Source: Candidatus Spongiisociaceae bacterium (lineage in GTDB: Bacteria > Actinomycetota > Acidimicrobiia > Spongiisociales > Spongiisociaceae). Taken from it: 64,000 bases of DNA. How positions within the stretch are numbered: the first letter of the stretch is position 1; every line of letters begins with the position of its first letter. The stretch spans positions 1-64,000 of the forward strand of contig OZ241841.1 of the NCBI GenBank assembly GCA_965202665.1, read 5' to 3'. The notes below the pieces were generated by a model. The model was not told the DNA's origin, made no database searches, and worked only from the letters and a program-made list of their open reading frames with translations. Made by a program: the position numbers and the translations under genes. This document shows, in pieces, positions 31,982 through 44,146 of the stretch.

Positions 31982-32123
31982 ATCAATCCCCGACCCCGCC
32001 CCGGAGAAGCCCGTTTCGGCCCCTGACCAGGCATTTTAGCATCACCCAGGTGCCGGGCCGGGAGGCAGCGGCCGCCCGCCCCTGCGTTGGATGGGTGGCT
32101 TCTCTTCGCCGAAAACGACCCTC

Positions 32124-32151
32124 TTGAAAACGTCGCGGGAATTCGTATCTT
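32124..32151 (+). promoter_or_regulatory. Putative promoter of the darT-ARH operon (leaderless)
   Basis: TTGAAA-N16-TATCTT, 7 nt before ATG 32159; no SD seen. Confidence 0.5.
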
Positions 32152-32158
32152 GTACCGT

Positions 32159-32797
32159 ATGAGCAACTCATGCCCCGCCCATTCCATCGCGGACAGCCTG
32201 CGCAGGCGGCGGATCCTCTACGTCTGCCATATGACCCCCTGCCATCGCCTGCCCTCCATATTCGCCTCCGGGGGGCTGCTCTCGCTGGCCGCCCGCCGGG
32301 TGAGCGGCATCGCCGAACCGGAACAGCCGCACGACTGGGGCGGGGAAGGCAAACGGGAGGCCTTGGCCGGATACGTAGTGTGCGGTTTCGAAACCCCCAA
32401 GTGGATGTGCCGCAAACACCCCGAAGAGCTGGCCCTCGTCCTCCTAGACGCCCACGCGGTGTGCTGCGGGGAAAGCGTCCTCTTCTGCCCCGGCAACTCC
32501 GCCGACGACCGCTACCCCGCCTCCGATATCGCAAAGATGACCGGCGCAGAACATTTTGACGACTGCTTCAAAAATCGCCATGACCGAGAATCAAAGTTCG
32601 GCGAGATATTGGTTCCGGGCCAGGTTCCGGTCGACCTTTTCCGCGGCCTGCTCTTCTGCGACCGGGAGGCGATGGACTACTGGATTCCCAAAATAGAAGG
32701 CCTGTTTCCGCACCCGCCGCTTACTGCGGACGTCCGGTACCTTTGGGGATACGCGTTTCCGGTAGACTGGAGCCCCAGCGAAAGGATCCGCCCATGA
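32159..32797 (+). CDS. darT: DarT-family (DUF4433) ssDNA ADP-ribosyltransferase toxin, DarT1-like
   Basis: VCHMT..RLPSIFASGGLLS (HxT..LxSIL..GLLS), YVVCGF, LFCPGNSA, and catalytic-Glu motif GEILV..VP. Confidence 0.75.
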   Translation: MSNSCPAHSIADSLRRRRILYVCHMTPCHRLPSIFASGGLLSLAARRVSGIAEPEQPHDWGGEGKREALAGYVVCGFETPKWMCRKHPEELALVLLDAHAVCCGESVLFCPGNSADDRYPASDIAKMTGAEHFDDCFKNRHDRESKFGEILVPGQVPVDLFRGLLFCDREAMDYWIPKIEGLFPHPPLTADVRYLWGYAFPVDWSPSERIRP

Positions 32798-34209
32798 CCT
32801 CACAATACGATCTTTCCTCCTTGCCCGTCGACGGTCCGGACAGTTACGTGTTGCGTATGGACCGCGTGCTGATCGCGGCGGCGGCGGGGGACGCTTTGGG
32901 ATGGATGACCGAATCCATCCGCGACGTTGAACAGTTGCGGAACCGGTTCAACACCGACTGGCTGACCTACTACCGAGACTGGAGCAAACCGGAAGGAGGC
33001 GCCCGGAGCTACATTGACCGAATCCGCCGGGGCGACTACTCCGATGACACGCAGCTGACTTTGGCCACCGCCCGGTCGCTACGGGGAGACGGCTCGCTGG
33101 ACGCCGGCTATTTCGCCCATTGGGAACTGCCCGCCTGGCTGGACTATGCACGGGGAGCGGGCTCGGCCACCCTGGCCGCCGCCCGGAACTTCCAACGTAA
33201 TTCGGTTCGCTGGAACCAAAACTTCTACACCTACACTCGCCGTCATCAGACTTTTGACTACCGGGACGCGGGGGGCAACGGTGCGGCGATGCGGGTTGCG
33301 CCCATCGCCTTGGCCAACCTGGCCGACCCGGATCTGATAACCGAGGGGGTGTGGCGCTCGGCGATCACCACCCACGGCCATCCGCGGGCGGTGTTGGGGG
33401 CTTTGCTCTACGCACACGCCTTGCAACTCTGCTTCATCGGCCAAAAGTCGCTTTCCAAATCGGATCTGGTCGAAGAGCTGGCCGGACGGTTGGAGCGAAC
33501 CGACCCGCCCCCGACTCCGGAGTTCGATGAATGGGTGGCCGTATGGAACCGGGGCGCAGACACATCTTTCGCCAACCTGATGGAAAAAGTCGCCCAGGAG
33601 ACGGCAGCCGACCTCATTCACTTGGCGGAGCTTTCCTCGGACGCAACGACCACCCGCCGTTTCATGGAAGCGCTGGGATGCTTCCGACCGGAGACGAAAG
33701 GCTCGGGAACGGGCACCGTTCTAGCCGCGTTGGCCATAGCGTTGCAGGAGCGGGACGACGTCCACCAGGCCATCCCTTGGACGATCAATCAGCTGGGTTC
33801 CGACACCGACACCATCGGTTCCTTCGTAGGAGGGTTGTGCGGAGCCATCTACGGAACGGATTTCGCCCAATCCGTCTGGTTCTACGAACTGCAGGATCAC
33901 GACGGGTTGTCAATGGCCGCCAACCGGATGGGGCGCATCGTCCGCCGGGAGGAGGCAGCGGAGCCTTGTCCCGCTTCAAACCAAACTCATTGGAAAGAAA
34001 ACCTCCCCAAAGCGCCGGACAGCATCCGTTCCGGTGTTCTGTCCGAAGGAGACTGGGTGTTTCATCACCTTTTCGGCCATGGCAAGATCGACGAAATTGA
34101 AACCCAACCTTTCAGAAACGACTCCGACGGCCAAGTTCGCTTAGTGCGCGCCGACTTCAACAACGGCCAAAGTTGCAAGTTCCGCAGTTTACAATCTCTT
34201 CAGATTTAA
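32794..34209 (+). CDS. ADP-ribosylglycohydrolase (ARH/DraG family) copy 1 with C-terminal Tudor/SH3-like domain
   Basis: GDALG, YSDDTQL, GNGAAMRVAP, THGHP, GSDTDTIG; ATGA overlap with the darT stop. Confidence 0.9.
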   Translation: MTSQYDLSSLPVDGPDSYVLRMDRVLIAAAAGDALGWMTESIRDVEQLRNRFNTDWLTYYRDWSKPEGGARSYIDRIRRGDYSDDTQLTLATARSLRGDGSLDAGYFAHWELPAWLDYARGAGSATLAAARNFQRNSVRWNQNFYTYTRRHQTFDYRDAGGNGAAMRVAPIALANLADPDLITEGVWRSAITTHGHPRAVLGALLYAHALQLCFIGQKSLSKSDLVEELAGRLERTDPPPTPEFDEWVAVWNRGADTSFANLMEKVAQETAADLIHLAELSSDATTTRRFMEALGCFRPETKGSGTGTVLAALAIALQERDDVHQAIPWTINQLGSDTDTIGSFVGGLCGAIYGTDFAQSVWFYELQDHDGLSMAANRMGRIVRREEAAEPCPASNQTHWKENLPKAPDSIRSGVLSEGDWVFHHLFGHGKIDEIETQPFRNDSDGQVRLVRADFNNGQSCKFRSLQSLQI

Positions 34210-34289
34210 TGGAGGAGTAGGGGGTTAGGACCGCGGCACTGGACCGGAGTGGCGGCCCGCCCCGTCGCCGAGGCTGGCACCGCGTCGAA

Positions 34290-34409
34290 TGGATGATGTC
34301 TTTTTTGCCGAAAACAGCCCTCGGCCAGCCGATCACGGTCACAACCCGGGGACTGTGGGATTTCGGATTTCCGCTAAACTGGCTTCCCAATGAAAGGGCA
34401 CGGCTATGA
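34290..34409 (+). pseudogene. 3' remnant of a second darT-like gene
   Basis: MMSFLPKTALGQPITVTTRGLWDFGFPLNWLPNERARL* aligns with the DarT tail MDYWIPKIEGLFPHPPLTADVRYLWGYAFPVDWSPSERIRP*; same ATGA overlap with the next ARH. Confidence 0.7.
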
Positions 34410-35833
34410 CCTCGCAATTTGATATCTCCTCGTTGCCCGACGGGGGTCCGGACGGCTTTTACTATCGTTTGGACTGCGTACTGATGGCGGCCGCGGCGGG
34501 TGATGCGCTGGGGTGGATGACCGAATCGGTCCGCGACGTTGAACAGTTGCGTAACCGGTTCGGCACCGACTGGCTGACCTACTACAGGGACTGGAGCAAG
34601 CCGGAGGGAGGCCGACGCGGATACATGGACCGCATCCGCCGGGGCGACTATTCGGACGATACGCAACTGACGTTGGCCACCGCACGGTCGTTGCGCGGGG
34701 ACGGATCGCTGGACGCCGAACATTTCGCCTACCGGGAGTTGCCCGCTTGGTTGGACTACGCGAGAGGAGCCGGGGCGGCCACGCGAGCCGCCGCCCGGGC
34801 CTTTCGGAAACAGTCGGTACGCTGGAACAAAAACTTCTACACCTATACCCGCCGTCACCAAACCTGCGATTACCGGGATGCGGGGGGCAATGGGGTAGCG
34901 ATGCGGGTTGCGCCCATCGCTTTGGCCAACTTGGCCGACCCGGATCTGATAACCGAGGGGGTGTGGCGTTCTGCCATCACCACCCACGGCCACCCGCGGG
35001 CGGTAGCGGGGGCACTGCTCTACGCCCACGCCCTGCGCCTGTGTTTCATGCGCCGCCGTTCTTTGACCAGATCCTATTTGGCCGGGAACCTGACGGAGCT
35101 GTTGGAGGGCGCCGCCCCTCCCGCCGTCCCGGAGTTCGATGAATGGCTGGCCATATGGAACCGGCGAGCCGACACGACCTTCGGCAACCTGCTGGAAAAA
35201 GTAGCGGGAGAAGCGGCCGCCGACCTCGCCCACTTAGCGGAACTGCCCGCTGATGACGAGCGGTCCACCCGCCGTTACATGGAGGTTCTGGGATGTTTCC
35301 GCCCCGAAACGAAAGGTTCGGGAACCGGCACCGTCCTCGCCGCCCTCGCCATAGCAACCGAAGAAAGGGACGACATCCAGCAGGCACTCCCTTGGACCAT
35401 CAACCAACTGGGTTCCGACACCGACACCATCGGCTCCTTCGTAGGAGGACTATGCGGAGCCGTCCATGGGGTGGACTTTGCGCAAAGCATTTGGTTCTAC
35501 GAACTGCAGGACCATGATGGGATATCGCATGCGTCGCGATGCATAGGACATATAGCCAACCGCCTCCATCCATTCCAAACCGTTTCCGTTCCCCCGCGCA
35601 ACGGAGCCAAAGGCCAACCCCCCTTGTTGACGGAGCGCATAAAAGCGGAGGACCTTGCCGAAGGCCAATGGGTTTTTCACTCCATCTTCCGCGAAGGAAA
35701 AATAGAAAAAATAGAAACCCGCCCCCTGCGCAACCAACCGGACCGCCAAGTCCGACTAGTCCGCGTGTGCTTCGAAAACGGCCAAAGTTGCAAGTTCCGC
35801 AGTTTCGTTCCATCCGGCATTAGCTCGCGCTGA
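34406..35833 (+). CDS. ADP-ribosylglycohydrolase copy 2 with C-terminal Tudor/SH3-like domain
   Basis: Same catalytic motifs; long identical peptide stretches with copy 1. Confidence 0.9.
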   Translation: MTSQFDISSLPDGGPDGFYYRLDCVLMAAAAGDALGWMTESVRDVEQLRNRFGTDWLTYYRDWSKPEGGRRGYMDRIRRGDYSDDTQLTLATARSLRGDGSLDAEHFAYRELPAWLDYARGAGAATRAAARAFRKQSVRWNKNFYTYTRRHQTCDYRDAGGNGVAMRVAPIALANLADPDLITEGVWRSAITTHGHPRAVAGALLYAHALRLCFMRRRSLTRSYLAGNLTELLEGAAPPAVPEFDEWLAIWNRRADTTFGNLLEKVAGEAAADLAHLAELPADDERSTRRYMEVLGCFRPETKGSGTGTVLAALAIATEERDDIQQALPWTINQLGSDTDTIGSFVGGLCGAVHGVDFAQSIWFYELQDHDGISHASRCIGHIANRLHPFQTVSVPPRNGAKGQPPLLTERIKAEDLAEGQWVFHSIFREGKIEKIETRPLRNQPDRQVRLVRVCFENGQSCKFRSFVPSGISSR

Positions 35834-37206
35834 TGACATCGGAGCGGATTTCCGAGCACTTGGAAAGCGCGCTGTTCGCCAACGCCTGCGGGGACGCGCT
35901 GGGGTGGATTACGGAAATGAATCAAGACCCCTCCAGGTTGTGGCGGATCATTGGCTCCAGCTGGCTAACCGACTTTGCGGACTGGTCGAAATCCGCTGGC
36001 GCGGGCGGCGGGATCAGGTACGTGGACATGGTGCGCGCAGGTGAATATTCCGACGACACGCAGTTGACTTTGGCCATCTTCCGTTCTTTGCGGGGCGACG
36101 GCTCCTTCGATGGCGACCATTTCACCGGCCGGGAGCTGGCGAAGTATCTGGATTACGCACGCGGGGCCGGGGCGGCCACGGTAGGGGCTTGCCTGGCCTG
36201 CCGGAGACGGCCGACTAGGTGGAATGACAACTTTTTCACCTACGGATACCGCGGCCGGCGGGATTACCGGAGCGGAGGCGGCAACGGGGCGGCGATGAGA
36301 GTGTCGCCGGTCGCTTTGGCGAACTTGCGCAACCCGGAGCAACTGGAGGACGGCGTGTGGCGGTCGTCGGTGGCGACGCACGGCCATCCCACCGCCGTCT
36401 TGGGTTCCCTGCTCTTCGCCCACGCCCTGCGCCTGTGCCTGGAAAGACGAGAGCCCGTGCCGCGCTCCGAACTGGTCGGAGAGTTGATTCCGGTTATCGC
36501 CGGGGCCGCTCCTCCGCCGACCCCGGAGTTTGAACATTGGGTGGACGTTTGGAACCGGTCTTACGATCTGGTCTGGGACGAACTCCCTTTTGAGGAACTG
36601 TTGGATAAGCGAGCCGGTGAAGTGGTCGGTCAACTGGAACAGCTGGCGGAGATTCCTTCTGAACCGGAGGCCACCCGCGCCTTTATGGAGGACGTGGGCT
36701 GTTTCAGCGGGGGAACCTTCGGCTCCGGAACCGGCACCACTTTGGCGGCCCTGGCTATCTACCTGCAAGACCGGAACGATCCCCGGTCGGCCATCCCATG
36801 GGCAGTCAACCAGCTGGGTTCCGACACGGACAGCATCGCCGGGTTCGTGGGAGGAATGTGCGGAGCGTCTTACGGCCGGGAGGCCATCCCGTCTCACTGG
36901 TTCCACCAGGTGCAGGACTCCCAGTACCTGGCCTATGCGGCCCGTTGCCTGGAGGGGGTAATCAACGGCCGTACCAACGCCGGCGACAATTTCCTTCCCG
37001 AACCAACGGATGAGGACGCCCTCCTGCCGCAACTGCCCGAATGTTTGGAATCACACGATCTCGGCGCGGGAGACCGGGTTTTCCACCCCATTTTGGGAAC
37101 CGGGGAAATAGAAGATGTAGAAACCCAATACGACAATCGCGTCCGTCTTACCAGAGTAACCTTCGATCAAGGCCAAAGCTGCAAATTCAAATACGTGCTT
37201 CCCTAA
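35833..37206 (+). CDS. ADP-ribosylglycohydrolase copy 3 (more divergent) with C-terminal Tudor/SH3-like domain
   Basis: GDALG, YSDDTQL, GNGAAMRVSP, GSDTDSIAG; TGATG overlap with copy 2. Confidence 0.9.
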   Translation: MTSERISEHLESALFANACGDALGWITEMNQDPSRLWRIIGSSWLTDFADWSKSAGAGGGIRYVDMVRAGEYSDDTQLTLAIFRSLRGDGSFDGDHFTGRELAKYLDYARGAGAATVGACLACRRRPTRWNDNFFTYGYRGRRDYRSGGGNGAAMRVSPVALANLRNPEQLEDGVWRSSVATHGHPTAVLGSLLFAHALRLCLERREPVPRSELVGELIPVIAGAAPPPTPEFEHWVDVWNRSYDLVWDELPFEELLDKRAGEVVGQLEQLAEIPSEPEATRAFMEDVGCFSGGTFGSGTGTTLAALAIYLQDRNDPRSAIPWAVNQLGSDTDSIAGFVGGMCGASYGREAIPSHWFHQVQDSQYLAYAARCLEGVINGRTNAGDNFLPEPTDEDALLPQLPECLESHDLGAGDRVFHPILGTGEIEDVETQYDNRVRLTRVTFDQGQSCKFKYVLP

Positions 37207-37210
37207 AGGT

Positions 37211-40051
37211 TCAGGCTCCAGCATCCAGGCGGGCAATCAGTCGGGGAACGTCCTGCTCAAATACCAGTCCGAAGTTTTCCCATTTGCCCCAGCGACCGTC
37301 CTTGTTGACCGCTTTTAGCCACAAATTCAGATACTGCTGCTTCGCGCTCGCCTCCGCCTCGGTCGCTCCTTTCGTCTCCACAATCAAATTCGTTTCGTCT
37401 TCCCTTAGGCAAGACCTTTCTCCCGCCGGACGCAGGCGAACTACGAAATCCGGATAGTAAGGCACTGACCGCCCTTCGAACACATAATCCACCTTGAAAC
37501 CGATGTGCTCGCGGTCATTTTTAACCCAACCCGCAACGTTTCTATGGCCGGAGAAAATCCTTCCCGCATGCTTTTCCAAACCGGAGTCGTATACGCCGAC
37601 ATTCAGGTGAGTGCGTCCCACGTTGCCGTCTATCAATTCAGGACGGCGACGGGTCACCCATGGACGCATTTCCCTGGTAGATAAAACAGGGCGGTGGGGG
37701 TTTTCGTAGACCCCTTCCATCATATGATATTCTTCCTGAAATAGATGGGGGCGAAGGTGTCGCACTATCTGTCCCAGCCCGGCCTTGATAACCATCTTTT
37801 CAGAAACGCCGTTGCCCACTATTTGCAACATCTCAGGGTTTTTCACAAACTCCAGCATCACCATGGCCAGCTGGCCCCACATGGCGGCACCGCCGTCCGG
37901 CCATCCCTCCCGGCTCCGGTAAAACACCCGGGCCGCATCGAAGGCCAAAGTTTGCAACCGTATCTCCTCCAGTTTGTCGCGTAGCACCGTCTCATCGGGT
38001 TCGGCGGTAACGTACTCCAATGTTTTAGCCATTCCCGCTTCGGTAAAAACCTCATCCGCCCGCAACAGAAGGGGCTCTACATCTTCCCAGTCTATTTTGA
38101 GTGTCTGACGAGGCATGGTTTCCACTCGCAACAGAGCGGGCCAGGCGACCTCGAACTTGCGGTTTTTCTCCACGGTGTATACGTCCACCGGTGGATGCGT
38201 AATCCTCTCACGGGCGGTGGACGTCTCCTTTTCGGCTAGCAACAAGGTGAATGGAACTCCGAAAATGCGCACATATTCGGGTTCAAAGGATCCGTCTGCG
38301 TTCAACTCGTAGGAAGTGCGGCGCAAACCGCGTCCGATTACCTGCTCGCATAAGAGTTGGCTTGTGAAAGCCCTCAACCCCATAATGTGCGTGACCGTTT
38401 TGGCATCCCACCCTTCGGAAATCATATTCACGGCGATGACATGCCTGATTTGCCCGCCGGGGGAACCTTCCACCCCCACGGTTTTGGCAATTTCCCGTAG
38501 CCGCTCCGCCTGTTCCCCCGCTTTACCGGCAACCCGCTCCCCGGCCTCTAATTTTTTCACCGCCTTGATGGTCGTACTGTCATAGTGGAGCGTGGTTTCC
38601 TTATCGATCAATTCGTCATTAACCAGCTTCAAATCAACAAATAGCCTTTTCACACGCTCCGCCGTCTCCGTTCTGTTGCAGATGCTGACCATAACCGGCG
38701 GAACCGATGAACTCTGCTCTCCCCATTCCTTGAGCGTGTCCGACCATGATCCGGCCAGCAGTTGGTATGCCGACACCACGAGCGGTGGCAAGGGCTCTCC
38801 TATCATATTTTTCCCGCCGCGTAAGTTTTCTTTGACGCCTTCTTCTTCATATAGATGAAACAGTTTGCTGCGCCTCTCCTCCCCTCCTGCTTCCAATCCA
38901 GGGAGCGGTTCGTCGTCCGGCGTGGTCAGGTTATCCTCGGCGGCGATACGCGGCGTCTTTACCAGCCCTGATTCGATTGCGTCGGATAAGCCGAAGTCGG
39001 ACACCACCCATGGGAACAGCCGCTCCTCCCGTTGCGTTTTCTTCCCAGGAGGAGGAAACGGGGTGGCGGTGAAATCGTAGCAACGAACAAGTTTTCCCAT
39101 CTTGTGGAGCCTGTCCAAACCCTGAATCCACACCGTGGCCGTTTCTCGATCCTCTTTTTTGTACTCGGTGAGTTTGGCATTCGACGGCACCCGCCAGGCG
39201 TGATGAGCCTCGTCGTTGAACACCAGAAACGGCTCCGTCAAATCCAGCATGCGGTTGAAAACCCGAGTTGCGAAGGCGCGATCCGTTTCCGGATCCAGTT
39301 TTACGACGCCCCGGCCCGACTCGGTTTGCGGGGCCAGTTTATGCCAGTTGGTTATCAGCAACTTCACCCGATTGAGTTTCTGCCGGAAACCGCCGCCGGG
39401 CGGCACCAGGGCAAAAAGGTCGTAATAATTGTCAGTATGGGAGGGTAGCAAAACCTGTAACCGATCCCGTACCGTAAGATTGGGCGCCAGAATCAGAAAA
39501 TTCTTCACCCAGCCGCGCTCTCTACGTCGCGCTTTATCGGCCCCGGCATAGTTCAAAGATTGCCAGGCAATCAACATTGCCATCAGCACCGTTTTGCCGG
39601 TTCCGGTGGCCATCTTGGCGCACCATCTTTCCAGCGAACCCCCATCTCCGGTAATCCGTTGCGCAACACTCCGGCCGGTGGCGTCTTCTGTGAGAAAAAT
39701 GATAGTCTCGGCCGCTTCCAGTTGCGCGTAAAACAACTTGTGTTCCCGCTCAGGATTTTCCCAATGTTCCAACAGCCGTCTAGTAATAGAGGTAAGACCG
39801 GGACGGCCTCGGCTTCGCCAGCGGATAAGGGCCTCCCTAATGTCATTAACCAACTGCAGAGGCTCTTCTATAAAATCGCCACTTCGAGGTTCGCGCAACT
39901 GGTAGGTGGCGTATCGCCGATGATGCACCAGTTCGAACTCTTTGGTCTCCCGGTTGAGTTTCCAATGCTTATCCGGACAGCTGAACGGCCTGTTGATAAT
40001 CAAATCTCCATCCACCCCCAACACCGTTCTGTCCATGGTATCAGTACCCAT
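37211..40051 (-). CDS. res: Type III restriction endonuclease (Res subunit, SF2 helicase plus PD-(D/E)xK nuclease)
   Basis: KMATGTGKT, NDEAHH, TATP, EGWD, EQVIGRGLRR, YYPDF...VETKG. Confidence 0.88.
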   Translation of the reverse strand: MGTDTMDRTVLGVDGDLIINRPFSCPDKHWKLNRETKEFELVHHRRYATYQLREPRSGDFIEEPLQLVNDIREALIRWRSRGRPGLTSITRRLLEHWENPEREHKLFYAQLEAAETIIFLTEDATGRSVAQRITGDGGSLERWCAKMATGTGKTVLMAMLIAWQSLNYAGADKARRRERGWVKNFLILAPNLTVRDRLQVLLPSHTDNYYDLFALVPPGGGFRQKLNRVKLLITNWHKLAPQTESGRGVVKLDPETDRAFATRVFNRMLDLTEPFLVFNDEAHHAWRVPSNAKLTEYKKEDRETATVWIQGLDRLHKMGKLVRCYDFTATPFPPPGKKTQREERLFPWVVSDFGLSDAIESGLVKTPRIAAEDNLTTPDDEPLPGLEAGGEERRSKLFHLYEEEGVKENLRGGKNMIGEPLPPLVVSAYQLLAGSWSDTLKEWGEQSSSVPPVMVSICNRTETAERVKRLFVDLKLVNDELIDKETTLHYDSTTIKAVKKLEAGERVAGKAGEQAERLREIAKTVGVEGSPGGQIRHVIAVNMISEGWDAKTVTHIMGLRAFTSQLLCEQVIGRGLRRTSYELNADGSFEPEYVRIFGVPFTLLLAEKETSTARERITHPPVDVYTVEKNRKFEVAWPALLRVETMPRQTLKIDWEDVEPLLLRADEVFTEAGMAKTLEYVTAEPDETVLRDKLEEIRLQTLAFDAARVFYRSREGWPDGGAAMWGQLAMVMLEFVKNPEMLQIVGNGVSEKMVIKAGLGQIVRHLRPHLFQEEYHMMEGVYENPHRPVLSTREMRPWVTRRRPELIDGNVGRTHLNVGVYDSGLEKHAGRIFSGHRNVAGWVKNDREHIGFKVDYVFEGRSVPYYPDFVVRLRPAGERSCLREDETNLIVETKGATEAEASAKQQYLNLWLKAVNKDGRWGKWENFGLVFEQDVPRLIARLDAGA

Positions 40052-42603
40052 CACTCCTCCTGCCCCACTTGTTTGGACTCTGGCAGAGGTATAACCACCA
40101 TCGATTCCACCCCGCGCCGATCAACGATTTTAACCGCCACCCGCCGATACTGACCCGCCTCAAAGGGAAGGCTTATATCCCCGTGGTACCATTCCAGAAG
40201 ATCCTCATCTATCGTCGCGCCTAGTGTCTTAGCTAGACTTCCCCAACCGTCCTTAGGACTTTGTGCGTTCGGGAAAAATATCTGGGAGGGGAACAGACTC
40301 TTTCCGTCGTAGTTGGAATCCAAAGACCACAAGGCGACCTCTTCCGCTCCGCTTGGTATAACCTTATTTGATTGATGATCATAGTAATCGAAACCAATAA
40401 TCTTTACTTGCCAAATGTCTTCACCTGTCTCCTCAATGTCAATATCAGGCTGGCCTACCAACCAAAAGACATCATCGCCAGGTTGGGCACCCTTCAAATC
40501 TGTAACAAGCAAATCAGCGTCGATAACAGCACGAACTAGATCCACCCCAGGCCAACTTTTTCGGCCTAGCAACTCGGATGCCGCCGTATCGAACCCGAAG
40601 GCTGCGAACAGCACCATCTCCGGACGTGGAACAAGTGATTGGGCTTCTTCTATAGCCTGCTCCACCTGAAAGCCCGATAAAGGCGCATAGGGCGATCCAA
40701 ACACTACAACGCACACCTTTCCTTCTTCCAATACCCCGGTGGCATGTATCCATCGGCCGCCAGCGTGTTCTGCTAGTTCATCAAAACGGATTTTGCCGTT
40801 ACGGACGGTGCGCACCCCGGAACGACGCATCTGCTCCAACCAATCTCGCCAATCATCCATTCCTTCCACATCGGCCACTACCTCCCCCCGGCTAGATGGA
40901 CCATTTTCGGACAACGGCAACACCGGATGCGGAGCATACGGAGCTGGCAACGCCTCTATAGTAAACCACCCCGTAACCCGTCGCTTACGGGATATCCTTC
41001 GTGGACGGTCTACCAAGTCGATGGTTTCCGAATCTAAATCGTATGCTAAGGTTTTAGCAGTAACCTTCGGGCAGGTCTTATATATGAACCCACTAGCCGG
41101 GCTACTCCCATCCCTCAGCTCATAATATGGGTAAACCGCGGTAAGTAACCGCTTTCTTGCTATAGTTAAAGCCACTCTGCTAGTGTCAATGGTAATCCAA
41201 CGGCGACCCCACTGCTCGGCTACATACGCGGTGGTTCCGCTCCCGCAGGTCGGATCAAGCACCAAATCACCTGGATCCGATGTCATAAGCATGCAGCGCT
41301 CTACAGCAGTAGTTGCAGTTTGGACAACATATATCTTACCAAAAGGACGTATCTGTTTCCACCATATATTATGTAGCCTGCTTCCTGGCCAATCCTCCTC
41401 GTATTTCTTATACATTAGTTGTTTTGATTTACCCGCCTTGTCACACAGCCTATTTAACTCTGCAAGATTATCCATACCTTCTTTTGATACACTCCAATGC
41501 ATATTAGGGGGACAATAAAATATTTTACCGCTCCATTTATAAGGTTCGGAACGGTTCTGGACATAGCCTTGAGATGTTAATAGGCGACGTGCATAAAGAC
41601 GTATCTTTTCCATATTATCAGGATTCTCTCTTTCTCTTTTAGATAATTCGCGTGTTGTTCCATCCAACTCTTCACCCATAACCCAAGATCCGAAATGTTT
41701 AACAACGTCTTCTCTAGTTCGCTCACCAAACAATTGGCGAAATTTAATTTTGGTTTTATCTTTAGCATACCAAAGCAGATAGTTGGCGGCATTGGGCAAC
41801 AGAGTAGAAGATCCCCCTCCCGAAGTAGCATATGTAATCAGCTCCACTCGGTTCTCAGCTCCAAATATTTCATCCAACAGCAAGCCCATCCGCATAACAT
41901 TTTCCGAACCGATCTGGACAAAAACAGACCCGCTATCCTTTAGCAGTTCCCGACATAGTAGTAATCTATCTCGCATATAAGACAAGTATGAATGAATTTC
42001 TTTTCGCCAAGTGTCCCGGAACGCCTGTACCATCTCCGGTTCCCTTGACACTCCAGTCTTGGTCTCACCTACATTCAAATTGTCCGTTACAATCTGCCAA
42101 TTCCCTCCATATTTTATACCGTAAGGTGGGTCAAAGTAAATAGTTTGAACTTGTCCGCCCATGCCCTCTTTCTCTAATAGCGATGCCATTACCAGCAGGC
42201 TGTCGCCTGCGATCATCCGATTTCGCCAACCTACCTCGTGCTGGTAAAACTCTACCGATTCCCGACCAGTCAGTTGGCCAGGATCAAATAGCGGGGGTTG
42301 CCCCCCCCCCCCCCGCGCCTCTTCCGCCCTTATGGCATCCAGAACGCTCAACGGCTCTATGCGCTCATGGACATGCAAATCCCGGACGTCCACTTCCAAA
42401 ATTCGGTTCTCGCGCTTCCCGTGCCATGACAGGAAGGGGTCGGTGCGGTCATCGTGTTCCCAAACCCGCGTCTCCGCCTCGCCCGGATGATCTAGATGCG
42501 CTTCGGCCTGACCGGCCTGCGGGTTGTTTAGCCTGCTCGCCTTGGAGTGGTCATAGGAGGACGGTCGCCCCCCCCCCCCCGTAGATCTACGTTGATTGGA
42601 CAT
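40051..42603 (-). CDS. mod: Type III R-M DNA methyltransferase (Mod subunit)
   Basis: Catalytic DPPY, SAM-binding DPTCGSGTT, AT-rich TRD between them; TGATG coupling to res. Confidence 0.9.
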   Translation of the reverse strand: MSNQRRSTGGGGRPSSYDHSKASRLNNPQAGQAEAHLDHPGEAETRVWEHDDRTDPFLSWHGKRENRILEVDVRDLHVHERIEPLSVLDAIRAEEARGGGGQPPLFDPGQLTGRESVEFYQHEVGWRNRMIAGDSLLVMASLLEKEGMGGQVQTIYFDPPYGIKYGGNWQIVTDNLNVGETKTGVSREPEMVQAFRDTWRKEIHSYLSYMRDRLLLCRELLKDSGSVFVQIGSENVMRMGLLLDEIFGAENRVELITYATSGGGSSTLLPNAANYLLWYAKDKTKIKFRQLFGERTREDVVKHFGSWVMGEELDGTTRELSKRERENPDNMEKIRLYARRLLTSQGYVQNRSEPYKWSGKIFYCPPNMHWSVSKEGMDNLAELNRLCDKAGKSKQLMYKKYEEDWPGSRLHNIWWKQIRPFGKIYVVQTATTAVERCMLMTSDPGDLVLDPTCGSGTTAYVAEQWGRRWITIDTSRVALTIARKRLLTAVYPYYELRDGSSPASGFIYKTCPKVTAKTLAYDLDSETIDLVDRPRRISRKRRVTGWFTIEALPAPYAPHPVLPLSENGPSSRGEVVADVEGMDDWRDWLEQMRRSGVRTVRNGKIRFDELAEHAGGRWIHATGVLEEGKVCVVVFGSPYAPLSGFQVEQAIEEAQSLVPRPEMVLFAAFGFDTAASELLGRKSWPGVDLVRAVIDADLLVTDLKGAQPGDDVFWLVGQPDIDIEETGEDIWQVKIIGFDYYDHQSNKVIPSGAEEVALWSLDSNYDGKSLFPSQIFFPNAQSPKDGWGSLAKTLGATIDEDLLEWYHGDISLPFEAGQYRRVAVKIVDRRGVESMVVIPLPESKQVGQEE
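42301..42314 (-). repeat. G14 homopolymer in the mod coding strand
   Basis: C14 on the + strand. Confidence 0.9.
42568..42580 (-). repeat. G13 homopolymer near the mod 5' end
   Basis: C13 on the + strand. Confidence 0.9.
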
Positions 42604-42608
42604 CTCTG

Positions 42609-42935
42609 CTACTTACCCTGAGTAGTGTTGTAGTTTTCGTTATATAACAATACTTTGGTTACGTTTACTGATTTTGTTAGGAAGGGGTTGTCTAGCGTTT
42701 CGGTGTCTAGCAGGTCTATCTTGCGGTCGAACATTTTTTGCAGTTCTAGCAGAACGTCGATGTAGAACCATGTTGACTGGTAGGCTTCCGGTTTGAACTC
42801 CACTAGGAAATCGAGGTCGCTTTGGTCGGTGAAATCACCTGTCGCGGCGGAGCCGAACAGGTGGAGGCGGCGGATGTTGTGCTCCGCGCACAACCGCCGC
42901 AGGTCAGCCAAGCGGTCCTCTATCAAAGCTATCAC
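42609..42935 (-). CDS. Minimal nucleotidyltransferase (MNT, MntA-like)
   Basis: LHLFGSAATGDFTDQSDLDFLVEF (GS-x10-DxD), KIDLL; GTG after GGAG. Confidence 0.85.
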   Translation of the reverse strand: MIALIEDRLADLRRLCAEHNIRRLHLFGSAATGDFTDQSDLDFLVEFKPEAYQSTWFYIDVLLELQKMFDRKIDLLDTETLDNPFLTKSVNVTKVLLYNENYNTTQGK

Positions 42936-42949
42936 GGGTTGACCTTCTC

Positions 42950-44146
42950 CTATTCTTTGGTTAGGTGGGTGAAGCGGCGGCGGCCTACTGATAGGGTTTT
43001 GCCTGCTACTTCTTCCCTGGGGTGGGTTTCTTCTTTTGTCGGTTGGCCGTCTATGCGGACTGCTCCTTGGGAGAGCATCCGGCGGCCTTCGCTTTTGGAC
43101 TTTACCAGGCCCGTTGCCGCTAGCAAAGCGGGCAGGTATACCGGGTCGTCCTCCGGCAGGACGTAGCGGGGGGCGTCTTCGGGGGGTTGGTGGGCGCGGA
43201 ACTGGCGGTTGAAGGCTTCCTCGGCCCGCTCCCCCGCTCCCGGGCCGTGGTAGAAGTCGGCGATGGAGCGGGCCAGCGTCCGCTTCGCCTCCCCCGGATG
43301 GGCCGTCCCCGCGGCCAGTCCGGCCGCCTGCTCTTCGGCCCGTTCCCAGTCCAAGCCGGATGCCAGGCGCAGCCACTGCGGCATGGCCTGGTCGGGGATG
43401 CTCATCGTCTTGCCGAACATTTCCTCCGGCGGCTCGTCGATCCCGATGTAGTTACCCAGGGACTGCGACATTTTCATCCGCCCGTCGGTGCCCACCAGCA
43501 ACGGCATCGTCAAAACCATCTGCGGGCGTTGGCCGAACCGCTGCTGCACCTGGCGGCCCATAATCAGGTTGAACAACTGGTCGGTCCCCCCCAGCTCCAC
43601 GTCCGCTTTGATCGCTACCGAATCGTAGGCCTGCAACAGCGGATACATGAACTCCATCATGGAAATGGGACGTTCGGCCGCAAACCGTTGGGAGAAATCG
43701 TCCCGTTCCAGCATCTGCGCCAAAGTGGTCATCGCCGTCAGACGCAGCACGTCGGCCATGTCCAAACCGGACAGCCACTCCGAATTGCGGCGAATCTCCA
43801 GGTTGTCCTCCGACAGAATCTTGCGGAACCCGCCCAGCACCGCCTCCGCGTGCTCCGCCACCTCCTCGGCGGTGAGCCGTTTGCGGGTCTCCGAACGGCC
43901 GCTCGGATCCCCCACTTGGGCGGTGAAATCCCCCACTATCAGCACCGCGGTGTGCCCCAGATCCTGGAACTGGCGCAGTTTGCGCAGAACCACCGCCCAC
44001 CCCAAAGTCACCGCCGGGGCGGTCGGGTCCAAACCTAGTTTCACCCGCAACGGGCGCCCCTCCCCCAGCCGCGCCTCCAACTCGTCCTCCGGGAGGAACG
44101 TTTCGGCGCCGCGCAACAGCCTCTCCGCCTGATGTTGGGGGTTCAT
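42950..44146 (-). CDS. tyrS: Tyrosine--tRNA ligase
   Basis: GLDPTA, GDFTAQVGDPSGR, YPLLQAYD, ELGGTDQ, C-terminal S4 domain. HIGH and KMSKS motifs are atypical. Confidence 0.95.
   Translation of the reverse strand: MNPQHQAERLLRGAETFLPEDELEARLGEGRPLRVKLGLDPTAPAVTLGWAVVLRKLRQFQDLGHTAVLIVGDFTAQVGDPSGRSETRKRLTAEEVAEHAEAVLGGFRKILSEDNLEIRRNSEWLSGLDMADVLRLTAMTTLAQMLERDDFSQRFAAERPISMMEFMYPLLQAYDSVAIKADVELGGTDQLFNLIMGRQVQQRFGQRPQMVLTMPLLVGTDGRMKMSQSLGNYIGIDEPPEEMFGKTMSIPDQAMPQWLRLASGLDWERAEEQAAGLAAGTAHPGEAKRTLARSIADFYHGPGAGERAEEAFNRQFRAHQPPEDAPRYVLPEDDPVYLPALLAATGLVKSKSEGRRMLSQGAVRIDGQPTKEETHPREEVAGKTLSVGRRRFTHLTKE

Follow-up and report, generated by a model that had tools for sequence, protein, structure and literature searches.

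The locus described here raises the question of why a single toxin gene of the DarT family should be followed by three genes encoding ADP-ribosylhydrolases (ARHs), and what the short spacer in front of the second of these represents. It lies within a 64,000-nucleotide stretch of contig OZ241841.1 of a Candidatus Spongiisociaceae bacterium (assembly GCA_965202665.1, positions 1 to 64,000 of the forward strand), hereafter the window, whose genome is referred to as G000; feature coordinates are collected in Table 1. The toxin, DarT-A, is a single-domain protein with no delivery part, matches PF14487 with 28.9 bits against a cut-off of 22.5 and the PADLOC DarT model with an E-value of 1e-5, and carries an H-x-T motif near its N-terminus plus a conserved glutamate, E149, which following the DarT literature we take to be catalytic. 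H24, T26 and E149 were nearly invariant across 72 aligned rows. All three proteins encoded 3' of darT-A are PF03747 ARHs in which five catalytic motifs are kept; ARH1 and ARH2 are 72% identical and each shares approximately 48% identity with ARH3, and no further close ARH copy was found elsewhere in the window's genome. The array is bounded upstream by an rRNA operon and downstream by a type III restriction-modification pair, and no Rfam family was detected within it. It is likely driven as a whole by the promoter match in front of darT-A, one of two consensus matches in the region where 1.1 would be expected by chance. The rRNA operon has its own strong promoter match at 31981-31952 on the minus strand, divergent from darT, and a second type III res/mod-like locus at G000:C1:2440481-2444469 is 64-82% similar in patches to window 38244-42210. 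Sequencing runs containing the locus include several sponge or marine metagenomes, with no RNA run among those listed.

Table 1. Features of the darT-ARH array and its surroundings (positions within the window)
Feature	Position	Strand	Evidence
Sigma70-like promoter match TTGAAA-16-TATCTT, 5' of darT-A	32124..32151	+	Consensus match only
darT allele A, intact, 212 aa, DNA ADP-ribosyltransferase family	32159..32797	+	Pfam PF14487, E 1.1e-6
ARH1, DarG3-type ADP-ribosylhydrolase, 471 aa, C-terminal SH3/Tudor-like barrel, DarT-A partner	32794..34209	+	PF03747; ARH3/DraG fold
29-bp direct repeat copy 1, ARH1 end	34162..34190	+	
ISL3 left-end relic, containing the ARH1 stop and TAG 34218	34196..34229	+	30/34 identical to one ISL3 copy
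Probable homologue of darT upstream DNA (window 32050-32123), stopping just 5' of the -35 box	34249..34322	+	Sequence similarity
Candidate 38-codon mini-ORF, in-frame ATG 34293 into darT-B tail	34293..34409	+	Sequence; frame kept by all four spacer indels
darT allele B 3' stub, 26 codons and stop	34329..34409	+	Identical to P0003 C-terminus
Shine-Dalgarno-like GAAAGGG for ARH2, in the Glu-Arg codons of the stub	34392..34398	+	Similar purine stretch 5' of ARH1 and G001 ARHs
ARH2, 475 aa, intact, orphaned DarT-B partner	34406..35833	+	Catalytic motifs intact
29-bp direct repeat copy 2, ARH2 end	35777..35805	+	
ARH3, 457 aa, older paralogue, coupled to ARH2 via TGATG	35833..37206	+	
Type III restriction-modification res and mod genes	37211..42603	-	Context

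The frame at 34209-34409, between ARH1 and ARH2, reads MEE and a stop and continues to end in PITVTTRGLWDFGFPLNWLPNERARL and a second stop. A preliminary description had reported that this peptide matches the DarT tail without gaps and ends in an ATGA stop/start overlap as at the darT/ARH1 boundary; both observations were borne out, with 12 of 25 residues identical to the resident tail. ARH3 and the in-frame ATG at 34293 had been overlooked in that description. Against shuffled controls the match is significant, the local score of the stub versus resident DarT being 78, whereas the best score among 2000 DNA shuffles (six frames) and 5000 residue shuffles was 55 and none of the 5000 residue shuffles reached 78. 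When the genome was scanned without gaps using the DarT tail, darT itself scored 149, the stub was second at 75 and the next match scored 51. The stub and the resident tail are identical at 50/81 nt, and 10 of their 27 codons are unchanged, 3 differ synonymously and 14 are changed (10 of these at two or more bases), a pattern that looks like divergence as protein. Going upstream, darT homology ends at approximately 34321-34329, being weak back to 34321, such that the stub covers DarT residues 187-212 only, begins some 35 codons past the conserved E149 and holds no catalytic residues. Pfam and PADLOC gave no match in the stub, and a broad DarT profile reached only iE 0.36 there and did not list a comparable stub found in G001, a genome of the same genus described below, so both stubs were identified by direct comparison of tails. 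Judged by its sequence, the window stub is a real remnant of a second darT gene. No darT stub was seen 5' of ARH3.

A second, diverged darT-ARH cassette had been proposed to have lost its toxin while keeping its eraser, and an intact gene of that allele does exist in relatives. Protein P0003 is a 212-aa DarT that ends in the exact 26 residues of the stub (26/26), alone among 209 DarT relatives, the next best of which matches at 20/26. Compared with DarT-A it is identical at 129/134 positions in front, whereas only 40/78 agree in the remainder, where the loop preceding E149 is among the altered segments; P0003 is therefore a mosaic with a switch near residue 134, which indicates exchange of the C-terminal third between DarTs. 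Between alleles this short loop is highly variable.

To place these proteins in context they were assigned to common contigs by matching contig sizes, not by DNA. A 427243-nt contig carries P0003, an ARH2 (P0189) that is 96.2% identical to that of the window, and an ARH3, with no ARH1 listed; a protein present on two contigs is shown with the longer one only, so an ARH1 could be hidden on this contig, and short contigs are cut. ARH1 occurs among relatives in two lengths, a 474-aa form ending like ARH2 and a 471-aa form ending like that of the window. The 474-aa form is found on five contigs, with ARH2 listed on none, and the 471-aa form on nine, seven of them also listing ARH2 and the window's genome among them. 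From this distribution of ARH1, ARH2 and DarT-B three layouts can be drawn: A (darT-A/ARH1/ARH3), B (darT-B/ARH2/ARH3) and the merged form of the window. The merged layout is commonest, on seven contigs versus the one on which layout B rests, and three of these seven list no full-length DarT-A. That the merged contigs have the 471-aa junction in common suggests that this form arose once. Eight of 21 listed sequencing runs, from six studies, were also compared, and the spacer was at least partly present in seven. In run X12 a single contig links 34188 with the start motif of ARH3 through 89 letters, which corresponds to the exact absence of the 1615-bp unit delimited by the 29-bp repeats. This one contig is layout A, arising either by deletion of the unit or as the state before its insertion, and cassette A thus exists without the unit.

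The geometry alone would permit another account, namely that the darT-A tail and ARH1 were duplicated in place and the copies then diverged, in which case a second toxin never existed, and ARH1 and ARH2 do share short identical blocks. That account is however contradicted, unless P0003 is an assembly chimera, by an intact gene ending in the identical peptide, residues 135-186 of which are also of B type and are absent from the window. ARH2 is moreover closer to the ARHs of G001 (77-80%) than to ARH1 (72%), the stub is closer to G001 DarT tails (62-69%) than to its own resident tail (48%), and in a quick tree built from 49 selected rows ARH1 groups with the ARH of a sister lineage rather than with ARH2. 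Duplication in place is consequently regarded as extremely improbable. What stands of the original proposal is loss of the toxin and retention of the ARH, P0003 being intact and co-occurring with ARH2, whilst the second cassette appears as a merged allele rather than a duplicate. The stub is thus very probably the leftover of a second darT allele, two allelic darT-ARH cassettes having merged in tandem and the second toxin having been removed by an internal deletion.

The spacer retains features consistent with such a history. Cassette B would have entered 3' of ARH1, where an ISL3 end and the 29-bp repeat mark the junction, and the last five ARH1 codons fall within this junction and the insertion sequence relic. 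A full ISL3 copy encodes a DDE_Tnp_ISL3 transposase; at least four copies of the element are present (G000:C1:388015-389431, 1687440-1688857, 606112 and 1786344), one with a frameshifted transposase. The in-frame TAG that had been taken to truncate darT is indeed present at 34218-34220, but it belongs to the ISL3 relic and is not the cut-off of the gene, homology to which ends further downstream as given above. TAG read-through, or a 66-codon gene from ATG 34209, was also considered and rejected, that frame being broken by +1 and -5 indels in X6 and by +1 in X8. Downstream of the relic, the similarity of 34249-34322 to DNA preceding darT had a score reached by 3 of 2000 shuffles and by 0.7% of 6000 random genome pieces; an end-anchored match was reached by 0 of 300, the anchor having been chosen after the match was seen. 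This modest match makes it likely that the segment derives from DNA upstream of darT. Comparison of the spacer with two G001 upstream regions was not significant (760 and 582 of 2000 shuffles). We infer from this arrangement a deletion of approximately 585 nt that would have joined the darT-like upstream DNA of cassette B to the last 27 or so codons of darT-B, taking with it the promoter and some 185 codons including the catalytic core. The deletion would have spared the ARH2 ribosome-binding site, which the GAAAGGG purine stretch in the final codons of the toxin likely represents, and ARH2 would since have been transcribed from the darT-A promoter. None of the four spacer indels disrupts the mini-ORF, two of them compensating each other in run X17, and this hints weakly at translational coupling through these 38 codons.

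The preliminary description had further likened the locus to the toxin-tip and orphan-immunity arrays of polymorphic toxin loci. Orphan CdiA-CT/Rhs-CT pieces contain a whole toxin domain, so the toxin-tip half of the comparison fails for a stub that begins after E149. As in such orphan tips (a subject of PMC7043789), a 3' piece of a toxin gene is left 5' of an immunity gene, the window piece differing in consisting of 26 non-catalytic residues. A further reading would make the stub a silent tip of the CDI/Rhs orphan kind, with which darT-A could recombine to give a switched toxin lying beside ARH2; both the exchanged C-terminal third of P0003 and the 50/81 nucleotide identity would allow this. 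The switch in P0003, however, lies approximately 50 codons before the start of the stub, the stub lacks both E149 and the variable loop that precedes it, a darT-A-to-stub joint was seen in none of the eight runs compared (contigs drop rare variants), and a DarT-A core with a B tail occurs in none of the 209 relatives, making a silent tip very unlikely. The orphan-immunity half of the comparison fared better as regards layout, which fits: the window array contains tandem immunity homologues without their own toxin and is variable between strains.

Arrays of three to four ARHs recur across the genus. In G001 darT is followed by ARHa, an ARH3-type gene and ARH4; beyond res/mod lies a second darT-ARH cassette, whose ARH3-type gene has an internal deletion. 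The short gap in front of ARH4 reads RFRFPPNWAPTDRIR and runs on into the start of that gene; directly 5' of ARH4 (G001:C1:1629821-1629870; L031:122-170) it holds another darT stub, which belongs to a distant DarT type. With a matrix derived from 10 distant DarT tails selected by pattern, this stub scored 44.3, above all 5,536,994 six-frame windows of G000 and above the DarT tails of G001 itself. ARH4 falls outside the ARH1/2/3 clade in the quick tree. The first ARH of G001 is frameshifted before its barrel, and 3' of mod a stretch resembling DNA near the tyrS 3' end (window 42932-43106) precedes the second cassette (L005/L004). In run X17 a contig over 32725-33822 continues upstream into letters matching 32115-32141, which points to loss of 583 nt of the resident darT (32142-32724) with 72 nt spared, as read from 30 loose letters on a single contig whose depth is 15; coverage is absent over 32400-32707, which alone is not proof of deletion. 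This length nearly equals that of the deletion proposed for darT-B (approximately 585 nt), shifted by some 17 nt, and no homology explains the equality. Eight of the 12 ARH3-type proteins of the sister-lineage P0086 cluster are 495 aa long and start with the first 12 residues of an ARH1-like gene, a deletion fusion, and none of these shares a contig, as matched by size, with the 15 DarTs listed out of 19 for that lineage. In L022 and L023, from the same family, longer-type DarT-ARH operons have a darT that looks broken and a whole ARH.

The suggestion that darT and ARH form an evolutionary unit is supported by their distribution. A darT gene lies directly 5' of this ARH family in 8/8 plasmid loci fetched (of 11 matches) and in the JGI loci; among close viral loci it is upstream in 6/7, the seventh being cut, with no orphan of this ARH family among them. 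A DarH-like helicase precedes the pair in 7/8 plasmid loci, and window ARH1 matches the plasmid helicase-DarT-ARH operons at 30-36% identity. Genome searches found DarT in 2 of 61 relatives and a close ARH in 1 of 401 genomes of the phylum. Of 29 genomes from the family, 5 matched the ARH profile, and the three of these outside the genus are of the longer type with a DarH-like match in two. A JGI scan returned three distant loci only, a viral scan with DarT gave no match, and phage records gave none to ARH1 at 1e-10. Barrel-tailed DarT-ARH pairs were also observed inside a BREX locus on a Nostoc plasmid (L012) and beside a type I restriction system on a JGI contig (L006).

The window ARHs fold like ARH3/DraG and end in a small beta-barrel. 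This SH3/Tudor-like barrel ends all ARHs of the clade (33985-34206, 35597-35830 and 36991-37203 in the window). Within ARH2 and ARH3, variability is highest in the linker and the barrel. Foldseek placed first for the barrel, at a non-significant E-value of 0.086, the C-terminal domain of UvrD in complex with RNA polymerase. Structural comparison gave Z 5.5 with VIA for the UvrD/PcrA Tudor domain (rmsd 2.8, 48 aligned), tied with Z 5.8-6.1 for EF-P/eIF5A domain I; a weak Pfam match to the CarD/TRCF RID family (E 0.016) fell below cut-off, and the ESM Atlas gave nothing for the C-terminal domain. Such a tail would suit a scheme in which spare ARHs are selected against phage ADP-ribosyltransferases (T4 Alt/Mod-like, modifying RNA polymerase) and are docked on RNA polymerase by the barrel, and toxin-free ARH systems countering viral ADP-ribosylation have been predicted in PMC9503650. 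Given a fold match that is not significant and is tied with another domain, an ARH family coupled to darT wherever examined, and the absence from the window locus of the regulators and phosphatases that accompany the systems described in that source, this scheme is improbable.

There remains the question of why ARH2 persists. Its frame and catalytic motifs are kept: four distinct indels were found in 34210-34328 and none in the stub, and in four runs that cover ARH2 fully there was no well-supported indel, one low-depth deletion being seen in X4. Nine of 11 ARH2 cluster members are full-length and all eight besides the window's own keep the five catalytic motifs, although clusters favour full-length proteins and broken copies may be undercounted. 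Confinement of indels to the non-coding part of the spacer, alleles diverging by up to 7% with motifs intact, the predominance of the merged layout (seven contigs to one) and the recurrence of arrays of three to four ARHs in the genus all suggest that intact ARH2 has probably been retained by selection. The same history may also have run without selection, a costly second toxin being lost and ARH2 being the leftover of a two-step decay, its frame kept by youth or by recombination with darT-B strains. Toxin-first decay is the norm in the toxin-antitoxin pairs surveyed in PMC13617665, with 185 toxin-only pseudogenes versus 8 antitoxin-only, and the promoter of cassette B would itself have been deleted. 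Changes between X5 and X6 in ARH2 codons 325-428 comprise 13 replacement and 5 silent among 18 listed, which is near-neutral, the list being partial and probably one recombined tract. ARH3 is frameshifted in X5 at depth 135, contig 304567 has a 471-aa ARH1, no ARH2 and a 201-aa ARH3, the sister lineage fuses the first 12 codons of an ARH1-like gene to ARH3, and the X17 deletion, which would remove the -10 box of the resident promoter, could silence the array. Weighed against the evidence for retention, decay without selection is a possible explanation but not the favoured one.

A DarT with an ARH antitoxin is already known in DarG3 of the DarHTG operons (PMC13069673), where anti-phage activity needs DarT and DarH and attempts to obtain a mutant of DarG3 failed, as would be expected of an antitoxin; the DarHTG section of that paper gives no biochemistry on which DNA mark the ARH removes. 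A bacterial ARH described in PMC11833690 was active on ADP-ribosylated phosphate ends and not on guanosine marks. As in DarHTG (Liu-DS3; PMC13069673), an ARH-fold protein directly follows darT in the window, and kinship of the window ARHs to DarG3 is by this operon layout. Unlike DarHTG, the window locus lacks DarH, which that study found essential for defence: no DarH lies 5' of darT, where the rRNA operon is situated, three DarH queries were unmatched at the locus, and elsewhere in G000 they gave distant or partial matches only (26% over 256 aa; 39-40% over 60-80 aa). The barrel tails also differ from the other tails of helicase-linked ARHs, and three to four tandem ARHs occur with toxin stubs. 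DarTG1 (NADAR) and DarTG2 (macrodomain) share with the window a PF14487 toxin, a toxin gene directly 5' of the eraser and restriction-modification neighbours, and differ in that the window eraser is an ARH. No description of a DarG3 array was found in the literature searched, which did not extend to subscription papers. The locus is a helicase-free, barrel-tailed variant of DarT/DarG3, its arrays probably assembled through capture of cassettes followed by deletion of their toxins.

AID systems offer a comparison for orphan- and poly-immunity arrays. T6SS/Rhs arrays similarly have immunity-like genes of differing origin behind one toxin, variable between strains (10.64898/2026.07.13.738213), whereas the window toxin has no delivery part and its immunity genes are enzymes whose protection against non-self toxins is hypothetical. 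In eroding chromosomal toxin-antitoxin systems (PMC13617665) the toxin likewise goes first and the antitoxin stays in a high-turnover spot; the arrays described here, by contrast, gather left-over antitoxins into a single operon downstream of a toxin that looks active, and do so in more than one species. A toxin-less eraser also counters DarT in the case of the orphan antitoxin of PMC11257639, which differs in being phage-borne and directed against DarTG1.

Taken together, we lean slightly towards a history of merger and toxin deletion in which ARH2 has been retained because it can serve as a spare antitoxin when other DarT alleles are met. DarT would likely ADP-ribosylate DNA as an anti-phage toxin, with each ARH removing the mark or binding the toxin, and a cell equipped with all three ARHs would withstand an incoming DarT with a different C-terminal third acquired by recombination within the population. 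Delivery of DarT between cells is not known, and allele-specificity is not a necessary property of an enzyme that removes a mark from DNA. More speculatively, the locus may be a poly-antitoxin array for an intracellular, non-secreted toxin, collecting erasers from near (ARH2) and distant (ARH4 of G001) cassettes with each toxin cut to a stub bearing the ribosome-binding site, and giving immunity to DarT variants that swap C-terminal thirds; the erasers would then be allele-specific and steered to RNA polymerase by the Tudor-like tail. If the spare ARHs are merely decaying leftovers, the locus is an ordinary though well-documented case. It nevertheless provides a natural matched set, comprising two DarT alleles that differ mainly in the last third, each with an ARH partner, and strains with either or both erasers, which makes testable both the allele-specificity of an enzymatic antitoxin and stockpiling against the defence toxins of an organism's own population. 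The two-gene, helicase-free DarT/DarG3 pair likewise gives a handle on the DNA mark removed by the ARH antitoxin.
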